Assembly (NCBI GenBank): GCA_039802605.1
Contig: JBDRWW010000019.1
Location: 1 to 10,895 of the forward strand
DNA: 10,895 bases
Source: a candidate division WOR-3 bacterium
GTDB taxonomy: Bacteria; Hydrothermota; Hydrothermia; LBFQ01
Reading direction: 5' to 3'
Made by a program: the position numbers and the translations under genes
Notes under the pieces: model-generated
Told to the model about the DNA's origin: nothing
Database searches by the model: none
Seen by the model: only the letters and a program-made list of their open reading frames with translations
In this document: piece after piece, positions 6,710 through 10,895 of the stretch
Position numbering within the stretch: position 1 is the first letter of the stretch
Layout of the letters: every line of letters starts with the position of its first letter

Positions 6710-6881
6710 ACCTTTTTATCGCCTCCATCTCTGCATTTAGTTTAATTATCGTCTCTTCAAGTTGGTTAATCTTTTCGGTTAACTTTTGAAGTATGTGTTC
6801 ATGTCTCCATATTAAATAAATGGCCACCACAATGGGGAAACCAACTTGTTGAATGGCATTAATGATAACATTCACATCCAT
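6681..6881 (-). CDS. YvrJ-family, holin-like small membrane protein (66 aa)
   Basis: IQQVGFPIVVAIYLIWRHEHILQKL followed by a coiled coil matches the YvrJ pattern. GGAG SD. Confidence 0.7.
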   Translation of the reverse strand: MDVNVIINAIQQVGFPIVVAIYLIWRHEHILQKLTEKINQLEETIIKLNAEMEAIKRYVDNDNRQD

Positions 6882-7299
6882 GCTTCTCCTCCTTCTCTAA
6901 GTAGTATAACAGTAGAAACGCGAGAATGGAGCGTATAACATTTTCATATCGGTCGTAAAGGATTTCAAGTATGGATAATATTTCCGTCGGGTCGTATCCG
7001 GCTTCATACATGTATGCCACTGCAAGGAGGTCGGGGACAAACTCGTTTTGTCTCATCCCCAGCTTATGCATGTACTTATGCATGTATAGGTGTCCTAACT
7101 CGTGTAAGGTAATAAACAGTTGTGTATATTCATCAACATTTTGGGGTAAATATATCACAGCCGGAAGGGTGGTTTTAGATGAAAATTCTATATGTCCCTT
7201 TGTGTTTGTTGCAAATTTTATTTTTATGTTTGGAAGCGTCTTTTTTACAAATTGCCGAAAATCCGTAAGAAAAAGGCTTAATATTTCCCTCTTCTTCAT
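6859..7299 (-). CDS. ImmA/IrrE-like zinc metallopeptidase (146 aa)
   Basis: LFITLHELGH (HExxH) followed by NEFVPDLLA, which supplies the third-ligand Glu. Confidence 0.75.
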   Translation of the reverse strand: MKKREILSLFLTDFRQFVKKTLPNIKIKFATNTKGHIEFSSKTTLPAVIYLPQNVDEYTQLFITLHELGHLYMHKYMHKLGMRQNEFVPDLLAVAYMYEAGYDPTEILSILEILYDRYENVIRSILAFLLLYYLEKEEKHGCECYH

Positions 7300-7769
7300 A
7301 ACTTCAACACGCCAAATTTAAAGAGTAAGAAGACAACGAAGGCTATAAACAAAACAACAAGCAGGACAACAAGCAGGGTTGTATAGGCTTTTACCAAATC
7401 TGTAATCTGTTCAAGGAAGCCTTTTTTGGGTTTCTTTTCCTCCATGATTTCCCTTTTTATCCTTTGGCAACTTTCGGAAGTGGTATAAATATCTTGGAAT
7501 TTCCCGCCTTCAACCGAAAGGTTAGTACGTACCATTTTGTGGTGGTCGGGCTCAACGGTTAAACAGATATAAGGAGCCGTTCTTCGTAAGTCTCGGTATT
7601 CTTTCATTTTATACCAGTTTTGGCCATCCGGTGAATATTCTATGGTGCCGTTTATTTTATAATTTCCGTATTTGTCTCCGAAGATTACTACTATTGAGCG
7701 GGCGGAATGGGGGATTTGTATCTGAGTTTGGAGAGTATCTTTTTTGCCAAAAAATTCTTCTCTTTTCAT
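7296..7769 (-). CDS. Beta-rich protein with a C-terminal TM anchor (157 aa; start re-called to MKREEFF)
   Basis: The ATG at 7769 overlaps the upstream TGA (ATGA). IEYSPDGQNWY beta motif and C-terminal TM helix. Confidence 0.7.
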   Translation of the reverse strand: MKREEFFGKKDTLQTQIQIPHSARSIVVIFGDKYGNYKINGTIEYSPDGQNWYKMKEYRDLRRTAPYICLTVEPDHHKMVRTNLSVEGGKFQDIYTTSESCQRIKREIMEEKKPKKGFLEQITDLVKAYTTLLVVLLVVLFIAFVVFLLFKFGVLKL

Positions 7770-8200
7770 CTTGCCAAGGCTATCATGAGAGCTACCACCA
7801 AGAACAGAAGCATGAACCCTATAATTGCTATCCAAACCCATCCGGGTATATCGCTTCCGGTCTGAACTACAACGGGCTGTGAAGGCTGTGAAGGCTGCGA
7901 AGGGGGTTTTTCACCAAATAGGGCTTCGCCCACTTTCTTTACAACATCCCACATATTAAAATGTTCTATACGGTCAAAAAACTCGTCAAATTCATATACC
8001 GGTATGTATTTTTGAAGTTTGGGGTATTTATCTACCAAATAAACCAACGCCCCAACAAGTTCCTCTTTGCTTGCCGGCTTCCTTGCAAGTTTTTCGCCCG
8101 TCTCTCTGATAAAGAGTTCCAATAATTGCCTTACTTTCTCCTCATCCAGTTCTTTCAACAACTCCAAAACCCTCTCGTGTTGTGTCTTCTCTGCTGCCAT
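7766..8200 (-). CDS. Helical protein with a PSQ linker and C-terminal TM anchor (144 aa)
   Basis: GGAGAGG SD, PSQPSQPSQP linker, TM segment WVWIAIIGFMLLFLVVALMIAL. Confidence 0.75.
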   Translation of the reverse strand: MAAEKTQHERVLELLKELDEEKVRQLLELFIRETGEKLARKPASKEELVGALVYLVDKYPKLQKYIPVYEFDEFFDRIEHFNMWDVVKKVGEALFGEKPPSQPSQPSQPVVVQTGSDIPGWVWIAIIGFMLLFLVVALMIALAR

Positions 8201-8224: not shown

Positions 8225-9082
8225 TTAAAACTCCTCTTCTTCCTCGTATTCGTCAAAAGAGGCAGCAGGACCCATATGTCTTATAGGGCTGGGCTTGGGT
8301 GTAGGCTTGGGTTTTATCGGTTTCTCTCCACCTAAATGCAACCCCGGAGAACTATACCCCGATATATATAACACCAATGTAAAGGTTCGTACCTGCCCAG
8401 CAGGAACAGGCGGGAAGTTCAAAAGGCTTATGCCTGTATTTCCATCCAACACCAACCCCCTGGCCACGGTGAGAGGGGTGTCTTTGAAGTTATCTTCCTT
8501 TGCGTATTGACCTAGTGAGAAAGTCTCAAGGTCTTGCCTGTTTCCCCAAATTCCGTAAAGTTCGTATCTCACATTTATAGCGTGGAATTCCGCTAACGTC
8601 ATTCCACCGTCCTTTATAAACCTGATGGCCTCTACCCTTGCCGACTGCCTCAACACTATATCCGAAAGGTACTTAGCGTCTGCCACCCGTGTGCCGTTTA
8701 GGGTTATGGTTATATTGGCACTTGGGCTAATATTCACAAACGGGGCAGGGGCGAAGAGACCCTGTATAATTGGGGTCATAGGTGTTGTTCCCCCTGAATT
8801 GTCTACGGTTATCACAAGCGTAGCGCTATCTGGGGCATATGATGGTTTTCCCAGAAAAGTGTATTTACTCAACAACTCCTGATTTCTATATGCGATTGGG
8901 TATCTTTGCCTGATTATTCTCCCAAGGTCCCGAAAAGTGGCACCAACAATGTTCTCAAACTCGTCAAACGCCTCTCTGAAAACCCTCTTTATATCCGCAG
9001 GGTCAAAGGTTTCCCTTTCCAAAGCTTCCCTTGCTTTTTGTATTGCCTGCAAAACGCTATATTCCCTATTCTCCTTCTCCAT
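8225..9082 (-). CDS. Candidate major capsid protein (285 aa; helical N-terminus plus beta-sandwich/jelly-roll-like core)
   Basis: Largest soluble protein of the structural operon, with a strong AAGGAGG SD. Beta-rich from about aa 85 to 243, with a Pro-rich and acidic tail. Fold inferred by eye only. Confidence 0.5.
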   Translation of the reverse strand: MEKENREYSVLQAIQKAREALERETFDPADIKRVFREAFDEFENIVGATFRDLGRIIRQRYPIAYRNQELLSKYTFLGKPSYAPDSATLVITVDNSGGTTPMTPIIQGLFAPAPFVNISPSANITITLNGTRVADAKYLSDIVLRQSARVEAIRFIKDGGMTLAEFHAINVRYELYGIWGNRQDLETFSLGQYAKEDNFKDTPLTVARGLVLDGNTGISLLNFPPVPAGQVRTFTLVLYISGYSSPGLHLGGEKPIKPKPTPKPSPIRHMGPAASFDEYEEEEEF

Positions 9083-9093
9083 GGTTTACCTCC

Positions 9094-9285
9094 TTATGCC
9101 TTTTTAGGCTCTGTTTTAAATCCCAACATGACCGCGACCACTGACAAAACAAGGAATATAAACACTATATCAGATATGAGTTGGGGTAGATGCTTTCCTA
9201 AAAAGGCCATCCCCAAACCAACTACGATGGCCCCAACCAACGCTATGCCGAAATGTATGTACCGCAACTCAAATTTGTCCTTCAT
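9094..9285 (-). CDS. Small two-TM membrane protein (63 aa)
   Basis: Two hydrophobic helices. First gene after repeat array B. Confidence 0.7.
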   Translation of the reverse strand: MKDKFELRYIHFGIALVGAIVVGLGMAFLGKHLPQLISDIVFIFLVLSVVAVMLGFKTEPKKA

Positions 9286-9294
9286 GGTGCGGGT

Positions 9295-9390
9295 ATTTTG
9301 GGGTTGTTTTATTCCATTATTTACCCAGTTTACCCAGTTTTGCCCGTTTTTCCTATTTTCCAGTTTTGCCTATTTTTCCAGTTTTTCCAA
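9295..9390 (-). promoter_or_regulatory. 9-bp tandem repeat array with a -10-like box (promoter candidate B)
   Basis: TTTACCCAG TTTACCCAG TTTTGCCCG TTTTTCCTA TTTTCCAG TTTTGCCTA TTTTTCCAG TTTTTCCAA at 9320-9390. Minus-strand CAAAAT at 9295-9300. Confidence 0.6.
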
Positions 9391-10596
9391 AACTTGGGCT
9401 ACAAACTTCTCACTTATGATGTTTAGCATTTCCGTATAGCACTCCAATCTCGTGCGATTGTTTGGGTTTGGGTCTTTTTCAATCCTTCGAATCAGGTCTA
9501 ACAAAACATCCGATAAACTTTTTTGTTCCCTTAAACATTTGTATAACAACCGCACAAATATGTCTGTGAATGCTAAAATTTTCCCCTTTCGCCATTTTCG
9601 TGATACATATTTCGCAAGCGGTGAAAATATTTTCTTTTCTGTTCCTCTCCCAAATGAACTTATGTATATGTTATACCCAAGTACTAAAATTTCGCCTCTT
9701 ACATTTGTTATTTTCCATTCTCCTCGTTTTCCTTTCCCCGACGATTTCGTATTCCCGCCCAGAATCATATACGATATGAAACTATCCTCATTATGAAAGC
9801 GAGAAATATCCCAATACAACGCTTTTACGCAGTATGCGTATGCTATGTTTGAGTTAAAAAAATCCCCTAATATCCTCCTTTCGGTTTCTGTTAGTCTGTC
9901 AAGTTCTTCTTCCATTTGTTTCTGGATTTGTTTAATCTCTTTGATTATTACCTTTAAGGGTTGTATTAGGTGTGATATACCCAAATTGTCATATTCTCCC
10001 TTCTCTACTTTCTTTATTAACGCTTCCGAAGTTATCGGCACCTGGTGTGGGTAATAAATGGGTAGTATTTGTCGGAGGGTGTTTATAAATGATGTGCGAG
10101 CCTTGATTAATTTTTTGTATTGTGTATATAGCAAACGGGCTTTATGCATATCCGGGTTGAATTTGTGTATTTTTGCGTTATCCTGTCGGCCATACAAGTG
10201 AAGGTAATAAGCGTCAAAATAATCGTCTTTTGTTTTTCGGGTGTGTATGTAGAAGCGTGCAAACTCCCTTCCGTGTACGGTATATACTTCCTTGGCACCC
10301 AGCATAAGGAAAAGAATGCCATACCTGACGGAATAAGTCCCGGTGTTTTCTATTACCACAGTTTTACCTTTTACTATTTGGCCAAGTTGGTGGAGGTGGT
10401 TATCATGGTCGTATCTTTTCGGGGGTTCAAACTTTTGAACGGGTATTTTCTTTTCTTCTCCGGTTTCGGTGATGATTTTGGCGGTTTGGGGAACTTCTAC
10501 TTTTACCCCTTTCTCTATCCATACTTTAAACCCCTCTTCGGGGTCATAAAACACCAATATGCCGTTGCCTATATCACAGCCTATTACCTTTTGCAT
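9370..10596 (-). CDS. IS110-family (bridge) recombinase, divergent (408 aa)
   Basis: RuvC-like DEDD: D8 (IGCDIG), E83 (VIENTG), D125/D128 (KDDYFDA). Coiled coil RTSFINTLR. Tnp domain DISRF...SY...KSSG with candidate catalytic S286. AAGGAGG SD. Confidence 0.88.
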   Translation of the reverse strand: MQKVIGCDIGNGILVFYDPEEGFKVWIEKGVKVEVPQTAKIITETGEEKKIPVQKFEPPKRYDHDNHLHQLGQIVKGKTVVIENTGTYSVRYGILFLMLGAKEVYTVHGREFARFYIHTRKTKDDYFDAYYLHLYGRQDNAKIHKFNPDMHKARLLYTQYKKLIKARTSFINTLRQILPIYYPHQVPITSEALIKKVEKGEYDNLGISHLIQPLKVIIKEIKQIQKQMEEELDRLTETERRILGDFFNSNIAYAYCVKALYWDISRFHNEDSFISYMILGGNTKSSGKGKRGEWKITNVRGEILVLGYNIYISSFGRGTEKKIFSPLAKYVSRKWRKGKILAFTDIFVRLLYKCLREQKSLSDVLLDLIRRIEKDPNPNNRTRLECYTEMLNIISEKFVAQVLEKLEK

Positions 10597-10624
10597 GGTT
10601 CTACCTCCTTTTTGTTTTACCCCT

Positions 10625-10779
10625 ACCCCAGTAGGCGGAAATAGTCTCTTCTCCCTTTCGGGAAATATATATTTCTCCCTACTGGGGTTTTTTAAATAGC
10701 GGTAGGGGAGGTCGGAATAATGTTCAACTCCCCACTTATGTGGGCGGAATTATAGCCTCCTCCCCCGTCCCCTACCGCT
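10625..10779 (-). ncRNA. Bridge-RNA-like ncRNA: two stem-loops, each with a two-sided internal guide loop
   Basis: 12-bp stem 10698-10709/10768-10779 with apical CCCAC/GTGGG. 11-bp stem 10625-10635/10678-10688 with apical CCC-GAAA-GGG on the minus strand. Four GGGAG-N10-TTCC(G/C) units. Lies immediately upstream of the IS110 gene. Confidence 0.82.
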
Positions 10780-10895
10780 TGCATTCTACTCTTGTTTAAA
10801 TAGTTTTTTAAGCCGGATAGTTGGTATGGGTATGCGGGGTGGGTTGTTTTTGGGGTGTGGGTTTTCGGGTGTGTAAAGGATAATCCAGCCATCGG
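10769..10895. repeat. Terminal direct repeat, copy 2
   Basis: Identical to bases 1-127. Confidence 0.97.

Follow-up and report, generated by a model that had tools for sequence, protein, structure and literature searches.

A virus-like circle from a hot-spring bacterium carries a divergent IS110-family recombinase and a candidate bridge RNA matching both its own DNA and its host's

The stretch of DNA analysed here (the window, 10,895 nt) is contig JBDRWW010000019.1, one of 23 contigs in a 1.65-Mb, 90% complete genome bin of a candidate division WOR-3 bacterium (G000; GCA_039802605.1; the window is its contig C19). The first and last 127 nt are identical, which gives a circular unit of 10,768 bp, and this virus-like circle encodes an IS110-family recombinase preceded by a putative bridge RNA with two loops. 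One loop matches a single site on the circle and the other a single site in the co-binned host chromosome, each perfectly and in the geometry known from the bridge RNA of the insertion sequence (IS) IS621. The best available reading of this arrangement, to which we give even weight for and against, is that the whole circle would be the donor of an RNA-guided integration, as an earlier note on this DNA had proposed.

The recombinase gene occupies positions 9370-10596 of the minus strand and encodes a protein of 408 aa with the RuvC-like DEDD residues D8, E83, D125 and D128 and the Tnp-domain pair S286-G287. All six residues are invariant in a 17-sequence alignment, in agreement with the earlier note's account of a protein with a full DEDD and SG set. 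When the protein's own sequence is compared with Pfam, DEDD_Tnp_IS110 (PF01548) is matched across residues 72-183 only (E=1.2e-9) and PF02371 is not matched; both families are found together in 15 of the 19 homologues scanned. A profile of the recombinase matches the ISCro4 and IS621 transposase structures over both domains (E=8e-33 and 8e-31, respectively), the first domain matching IS621/ISCro4 and the second aligning with ISCro4 residues 169-322, and there is also a match to a PHROG transposase family (E=6.8e-14). No close relative is present among 5.8 billion clustered proteins, and an exhaustive HMMER search of 1.84 billion representatives returned 27 relatives. The GC content of the gene, overall and at third codon positions (GC3), is like that of the rest of the circle. 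Judged by its sequence, the open reading frame (ORF) at 9370-10596 is a true member of the IS110 family, very divergent and with its catalytic residues all in place. It shares the DEDD RuvC-like and serine Tnp domains of IS621 and the IS110 group (Durrant et al. 2024, PMC11208160; Hiraizumi et al. 2024, PMC11208158) and is unlike IS621 in the extent of its divergence, with its own sequence missing PF02371.

Immediately upstream of the gene, the minus strand at 10626-10778 is predicted to form two long hairpins, both containing a large internal loop that a short distal hairpin closes off (minimum free energy -82.2 kcal/mol, z=-5.8, none of 200 shuffles being as good), so that the two-loop RNA of the earlier note holds up. 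The first hairpin (10699-10778), whose outer stem spans the assembly junction 10768/10769, contains the predicted target-binding loop, with a left target guide (LTG, AGGCUAUA, 10751-10758), an inner hairpin (10730-10747) and a right target guide (RTG, (U)GAACAUUA, 10718-10726). The second (10626-10687) contains the predicted donor-binding loop, with a left donor guide (LDG, AAUAUAUA, 10666-10673), an inner hairpin (10652-10663) and the right donor guide (RDG, AGAGACUA, 10642-10649). All of these lie on the minus strand, and the assignments come from the fold together with one perfect host match for the first loop and a unique donor match for the second. The two loops are laid out in parallel: the first reads AGGCUA-UA-AUUCC on its 5' side and (U)GAACAU-UA-UUCCG on its 3' side, the second AAUAUA-UA-UUUCC and AGAGAC-UA-UUUCCG, the 5' sides having the form guide(6)-UA-WUUCC and the 3' sides the form guide(6)-UA-UU(U)CCG. 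The 5' side of a loop thus has the same sense as the left half of its site and the 3' side is the reverse complement of the right half, around a shared TA core.

In IS621, the first loop binds the target and the second the donor (PMC11208160), and both the order of the loops and the strand rule seen here agree with that system. The likeness extends to the location of the RNA, in the recombinase gene's leader and with target loop ahead of donor loop, and to the reading of the bottom strand by the 5' side and of the top strand by the 3' side, both sides spanning a shared 2-nt core (PMC11208160; PMC11208158); the core differs, being TA here and CT in IS621. Rfam contains no family matching the RNA, the search returning one spurious miRNA-like hairpin match. 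A promoter-like site, TTAAAA-17-TAGAAT (10783-10811 of the minus strand, equivalent to bases 15-43; 9/12 positions), lies ~5 nt before the first hairpin and within the 3' end of ORF 18-329; it is a consensus match only, and such sites are no commoner than in shuffled sequence. A GGAGG ribosome-binding site follows the second hairpin. From this arrangement, the leader of the recombinase mRNA, transcribed from the adjacent promoter-like site, would fold into the two-loop bridge RNA. IS621, in contrast, has a promoter that spans the element junction, and a search for a sigma-70-like promoter across the donor site, of the split kind seen in IS621, found none.

The donor loop would pair with both strands of AATATA-TA-GTCTCT (AATATATAGTCTCT) at 749-762 of the plus strand, with the TA core at 755-756, within a 264-nt intergenic region (699-962). 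This 14/14 match, already recognised in the earlier note, is the sole perfect copy in the 23 contigs and 1.65 Mb of the assembly, the 18 further matches carrying 2 mismatches; when the halves of the site were shuffled as decoys, a perfect match in the virus arose in 205 of 200000 trials. Read in the register of the donor loop, the first loop spells AGGCTA-TA-ATGTTC(A), a sequence that was derived before searching, and this has one perfect host copy, at C2:203622-203635 (15/15 when extended to 203636). There are no 1-mismatch sites in the host contigs, and 22 further matches carry 2 mismatches. Three kinds of decoy gave a perfect host match in 132, 230 and 411 of 20000 trials (0.7-2%). Perfect copies of the donor are lacking from the host, and the virus contains nothing within two mismatches of the target. 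Taken together, a donor (~1e-3) and a target (~1e-2) that are each unique, perfect and in the correct geometry would arise by chance with a probability of ~1e-5, and since the two unique perfect matches each lie in the right replicon and have the right strand geometry, chance is hard to credit. The host match of the first loop is new here and, as a reading of sequence, strengthens the original observation. The earlier note's target guides stand to the extent that the loop matches the host once, although their right half was one base off (ATGTTC(A), not TGTTCA); the target as it was then written, AGGCTATATGTTCA, has no perfect match in the host, and its best match carries 1 mismatch.

The predicted integration would insert the entire circle by recombination at the common TA core of the donor and of AGGCTA-TA-ATGTTCA in the host chromosome (C2:203622-203636). 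AGGCTA-TA-GTCTCT and AATATA-TA-ATGTTC would form the borders of the resulting provirus, whose recombinase gene would lie ~2 kb in from one of them. In the host, the site falls in the last 18 codons of a gene for a 436-aa permease, convergent with a glycosyltransferase-like gene, and insertion there would replace the C-terminal 14 residues of the permease.

The alternative that the recombinase gene and its RNA are simply an inserted IS is not compatible with the sequence around them. A canonical inserted IS110 element would be a unit of ~1.5 kb with hybrid junctions and the donor halves of its own ends beside the RNA, and this is not what is found: in agreement with the earlier note, no hybrid left target-TA-right donor (LT-TA-RD) or left donor-TA-right target (LD-TA-RT) junction is present in the window at two or fewer mismatches, and the only other perfect TAGTCTCT is the guide-coding DNA. 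The stop codon of the IS110 gene runs into a 9-nt repeat array belonging to the next operon, and because this array (9302-9394) overlaps the last codons of the gene, there is no room for a separate IS right end. In IS621 the donor is located at the junction of the right and left ends (RE-LE), by the RNA, and its top strand is the RNA sense strand, whereas here the donor is inverted with respect to that layout and lies 746 nt upstream of the RNA, with two ORFs in between. These are ORF 345-698 (minus strand; 117 aa, acidic, with a Cys-rich motif) and ORF 18-329 (minus strand; 103 aa), whose stop lies ~8 nt from the first stem of the RNA; neither has a family match. Since hybrid half-sites are missing, and the donor lies inverted at a distance of 0.75 kb from the RNA, the only competent donor would be the whole 10,768-bp circle; one intact donor without hybrid ends would make the circle itself the donor in bridge-recombination terms. 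Another difference from IS621 is therefore the element itself, here a 10.8-kb replicon with virus-like genes. That the enzyme would be programmable is taken by analogy from its family, and recombination, and its service to lysogeny, are likewise inferred.

Two other uses of the donor site have to be weighed against integration of the whole circle. A smaller block, consisting of the donor site, the two small ORFs, the RNA and the IS110 gene, might move on its own through half-site matches, as a ~2-kb unit at a AGGCTATAATGTTC-like site, with the virus serving as its vehicle. Half-match recombination and partial excision have been reported for IS110 elements (bioRxiv 10.64898/2026.08.31.748434, 10.64898/2026.08.14.744561), and the donor and the IS110 gene lie within ~2.2 kb of each other on the circle. 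We nevertheless find it improbable: there is no second core+RD or LD+core site to bound such a block, the only other perfect half-sites being guide-coding DNA and two copies of AATATATA (at 2595 and 4977), and the next operon's repeat array shares bases with the 3' end of the gene. It is less probable still, to the point of being far-fetched, that the recombinase and its RNA bind 749-762 without integrating anything, to regulate the ORF117-ORF103-RNA-IS110 operon or to process multimers. The donor site does lie in the leader region upstream of that operon, and a promoter-like site at 954-927 of the minus strand would place it in a 5' untranslated region, but such a role leaves the perfect, unique host match of the target loop unexplained, and we know of no non-integrative role of this kind in the IS110 family.

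Comparison with related sequences supports, at the level of sequence, the view that this viral lineage has kept the IS110 gene as a stable component. Close variants of the element, or the element itself, recur in hot-spring metagenomes from 9 studies as a unit of roughly 10-11 kb. The earlier note had called for a search for relatives with the same layout, and runs of three studies (P1, P2, P3) do yield Logan contigs with the IS110 gene in the same position: record 14 of run X3 spans 8627-10545 with 75 differences, and records 19 and 20 of run X5 and record 28 of run X6 cover the gene. A homologue of the recombinase, P0003, is 39% identical and keeps all catalytic residues. A 285-aa capsid-like protein encoded on the circle has five homologues (92, 85, 62, 52 and 48% identity) and has no match in the 271 other genomes of the host phylum. 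For P0003 and for the 48%-identical capsid-like homologue, P0038, the source is in either case a JGI contig of 4,536 nt; if, as we infer, this is one contig, a deep relative would keep the IS110-capsid neighbourhood.

Within the host phylum, IS110 homologues occur in 2 of the 271 other genomes (loci L004 and L005, both in the same host family), and these are distant, with 28-29% identity. Strong internal-loop hairpins lie on either side of the IS110 ORF of L004 (440-556 and 2012-2110; z=-6.0 and -6.6), and L005 has one hairpin upstream of its ORF and another downstream (~8640-8730 and 7230-7320, minus strand). Both could represent a split bridge-RNA layout that becomes contiguous only in the circular form.

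Several observations weigh against integration of the circle by its recombinase. The RNA fold and its guides were read from a single sequence. The target lies inside a coding region and is unconserved: the nearest sister species (G065), 91% identical at the locus, has 1 mismatch in the 14-mer, and the site has diverged in G062 and G063, so the perfect match is specific to the genome with which the circle was co-binned. No integrated copy or hybrid junction was found in the 23 contigs, where both sites are intact, and no provirus was found in the 271 other genomes of the phylum. Contig C2 is continuous across the target, and a contig of the source run (X1 record 1) is unbroken through 755/756. 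Depth in the source run is ~13-14x for the virus and ~9x for a host-like contig, and this ratio of ~1.5 suggests that the episome is the main form. Among the 24 of 75 Logan-contig loose ends that were listed, none lies at 755/756, and those listed cluster at a tRNA gene (1422-1504). The recombinase itself may not be intact in every variant. In run X5 a joint connects 9390 to 10066 (depth 45.8, side only 30), and in P0029 residues 1-262 are fused to ORF 6359-6709, each a possible loss-of-function variant; P0002 breaks off at residue 174/175, and the NCBI contig that encodes it (12,852 nt) is longer than the circle; and neither protein search returned an IS110 ORF from an 11,228-nt Logan contig that encodes the 85%-identical capsid-like protein. 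Truncated or broken IS110 variants may therefore exist. On the earlier note's central claim, then, the single intact donor, the missing IS-type termini, the unique host target and the stability of the gene in the lineage speak for the whole circle as donor, but an integrated copy is found neither in the assembly nor among the listed loose ends.

One contig-match end was considered as a possible junction and set aside. Position 753 is where a target/donor hybrid would begin to match; a single-nucleotide polymorphism at 832 (X3, X5) lies 80 letters from the contig-match end, which places that end at either 753 or 911, and the depths fit both, so that it is not counted as evidence.

A complete Xer-like tyrosine recombinase adjoining a tRNA-Gln offers a conventional alternative route of integration. 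The gene (1459-2175, minus strand; 238 aa) matches a PHROG integrase family (E=6e-18) and, over residues 5-160, the XerC-like recombinase chain 4a8e (E=2e-11); its PF00589 score of 24.3 is under the cut-off of 27.1, and the R, HxxR and Y residues were read by eye. The adjoining tRNA-Gln(UUG) (1423-1496, minus strand) is complete, is the sole one in the 23-contig assembly and is a candidate attachment (att) site for this enzyme, the last 38 nt of whose ORF extend into the 5' half of the tRNA; the host contigs have tRNA-Gln(CUG) only. The placing of a recombinase gene directly by a tRNA resembles the tyrosine-integrase/tRNA attP modules of temperate phages such as IN93 and Tsatsa at tRNA-Ile (PMC11437467), from which the present pair differs in having a complete tRNA instead of a 3' fragment and a short, Xer-like recombinase. 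By sequence, the enzyme could be the actual integrase, or, as it is short and Xer-like, a multimer resolvase. In runs X3 and X6, contigs match the tRNA only (1422, 1496-1500), with unlike sequence on both sides and an identical left flank in the two runs (TTGATAAATCTGAAATCTTCTTAATATCCA); either tRNA-Gln loci of the host or att junctions made by the tyrosine recombinase could account for these. A match between the 3' end of the tRNA and a host tRNA-Val (30/32) was rejected as an att core, as it looks like common T-arm sequence.

With such a module at hand, the IS110 gene and its RNA might be a passenger or relic that mobilises nothing, with any lysogeny relying on the tyrosine recombinase acting at tRNA-Gln, and with the pair of 14-mer matches being chance or leftovers. 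This explanation would account for the pairing of a complete tyrosine recombinase with a full tRNA, for the donor and target that are both intact in one sample, for the failure to find a form integrated at the donor site in the 23 contigs and the listed loose ends, and for the possible truncated or deleted IS110 variants and the possible IS110-less relative. Against it stand the ~1e-5 joint chance of both matches, catalytic residues intact both here and in the 39%-identical relative, a gene kept at one locus over three studies, and the prospect that the tyrosine recombinase only resolves multimers, and on balance we judge it unlikely. Were it correct, the block would be an ordinary divergent IS110 relic.

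Under the best reading, the circle would be a small temperate virus, or an episome resembling one, from an uncultured hot-spring bacterium, with a working IS110-type bridge recombinase among its own genes. Its sizeable ORFs are all on the minus strand, co-directional and tightly packed, and include several small membrane proteins. Family matches are few, and comprise a packaging-ATPase-like protein (2498-3058, minus strand; PHROG 'terminase large subunit', E=8e-10), a holin (6681-6881, minus strand; PHROG, E=5e-9), an M78-like peptidase and a basic, 73-aa DNA-binding protein of the Fusellovirus VP2 family (4458-4679, minus strand; Pfam, E=9e-8). The VP2 capsid/DNA-binding family is known from archaeal viruses, and the match contrasts with the binning of the element to a bacterium. 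The 285-aa capsid-like protein has no family match in Pfam or PHROG. Modelled from an alignment with its five homologues, it has an N-terminal helical arm and a beta-sandwich (predicted local distance difference test, pLDDT, 65), and the best matches of the sandwich are viral jelly-roll capsid proteins, at weak scores (Foldseek E>=3.7e-3, VIA Z<=6.2); folded from the single sequence, it reaches a pLDDT of 38 and its protein-atlas matches fall below trust level. The earlier note's 'capsid' and 'ordinary viral genes' were thus too firmly named, as no family match establishes either, and because the capsid-like protein has no family match and its jelly-roll matches are weak, the circle is likely a virus, short of proof. 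No relative of the circle is present in 50,697 GenBank phage records or in IMG/VR, and blastn revealed no CRISPR-spacer-like matches linking the virus to other contigs.

Given these weak hallmarks and the lack of relatives among known phages, the circle might not be viral at all, but an excised, expanded IS110 element with cargo, or a plasmid with some phage-like genes. IS110 elements that have grown to ~100 kb, with plasmid-derived and some phage-derived cargo, have been reported (Hu et al. 2026, bioRxiv 10.64898/2026.08.14.744561), and the circle is like them in combining an IS110 gene and bridge RNA with many kb of non-IS DNA, some of it phage-like. Those elements are described as chromosomal loci built by successive additions, mostly plasmid-derived and many without another integrase, while the present one is a compact, autonomous circle with virion-type genes, a tyrosine recombinase and a donor displaced from the RNA. 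A non-viral origin is hard to square with the packaging-ATPase-like, holin and VP2-family matches, with the many viral capsid jelly-rolls among the top fold matches of the 285-aa protein, with the packed, co-directional genes and small membrane proteins, and with the recurrence of the unit across metagenomes of 9 studies, and we regard it as quite unlikely. In practice, it differs from whole-circle integration of a virus mainly in name.

Also on the circle, a 452-nt cassette (962-1413), bounded by an 11-nt direct repeat, ATTATGACAAC (962-972 and 1414-1424), contains an ORF (963-1415, 150 aa) with 86% DNA identity to host C2:40537-40977, a link between the circle and its host. A contig of run X5 joins 961 to 1414, and some variants therefore lack the cassette, which has the look of an accessory gene of host origin, acquired or lost through microhomology. 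At 7321-7719, within ORF 7296-7841, run X5 has 409 unlike letters instead, between flanks that are ~95% identical; this segment is a hypervariable cassette, possibly involved in host recognition. Degenerate 9-nt repeat arrays of the ACCAGTTTT / ACCCGTTTT type lie at 3862-3928 and 9302-9394, each just upstream of a minus-strand gene block, and may serve as operators or iterons; a 9-nt deletion at 9320 shortens the second array in run X5. The intergenic region of the donor site also contains, at 775-881, an inverted repeat (TATACCCGG/CCGGGTAT) and two direct copies of CCGGGTATTA, to which the tyrosine recombinase or a regulator may bind.

The use of an IS110 transposase for integration of a whole phage genome is not a new idea, and its novelty had been overstated. 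For the Neisseria filamentous prophages Nf1/MDA phage, an IS110 transposase is held to integrate the genome at dRS3 repeats, in which a CT is conserved (PMC7058167, citing Kawai et al. 2005), a proposal that dates from 2005, and the same route has been proposed for the Thermus inoviruses phiOH16, Zuza8 and Zuza27, whose proviruses have an IS110-family gene at one end (PMC11437467). The parallel between the circle and these phages is that, in the proposals for both, the element's own IS110-family enzyme would insert its whole genome. In the Neisseria and Thermus phages, proviruses have been observed and the transposase gene lies near one provirus end, whereas for the circle no provirus was found and the counterpart of that position is only predicted. 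They are single-stranded DNA inoviruses of ~6-8 kb, while the circle has packaging-ATPase-like, jelly-roll-like and holin genes and is not an inovirus. For the circle, unlike those phages, the guide RNA and both sites can be read. A literature search found no description of a guide RNA with donor and target loops for the filamentous IS110 phages, and a search of titles and abstracts found nothing on a virus-encoded bridge RNA. Phage integration by the phage's own IS110 transposase and IS110 elements with cargo are known already; what is new here is that guide RNA, donor and host target are readable for a virus-like circle.

If the whole circle is the donor, it would be a natural case of one guide RNA specifying both viral attachment sites, with a donor that acts in trans, 0.75 kb from the RNA, and a cargo of 10.8 kb; insertion is favoured over excision in IS621 (PMC13626964). 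It would tie bridge RNAs to the phages suspected of integrating through their own IS110 transposase and would provide a thermophile-derived bridge system with a TA core. A further possibility, which we put forward tentatively and with more doubt than belief, is that small, non-filamentous double-stranded DNA viruses of hot-spring bacteria have taken a bridge recombinase as their lysogeny module, vertically inherited over ~50% protein divergence, with attP (749-762) and attB written in one RNA so that a few guide mutations would retarget lysogeny to a new host strain, and with the Xer-like recombinase merely resolving multimers. Were this the case, the exact match in this host and the 1 mismatch in the sister species would be a trace of such retuning, and temperate viruses could switch integration sites by mutating their guides, which is a testable prediction.

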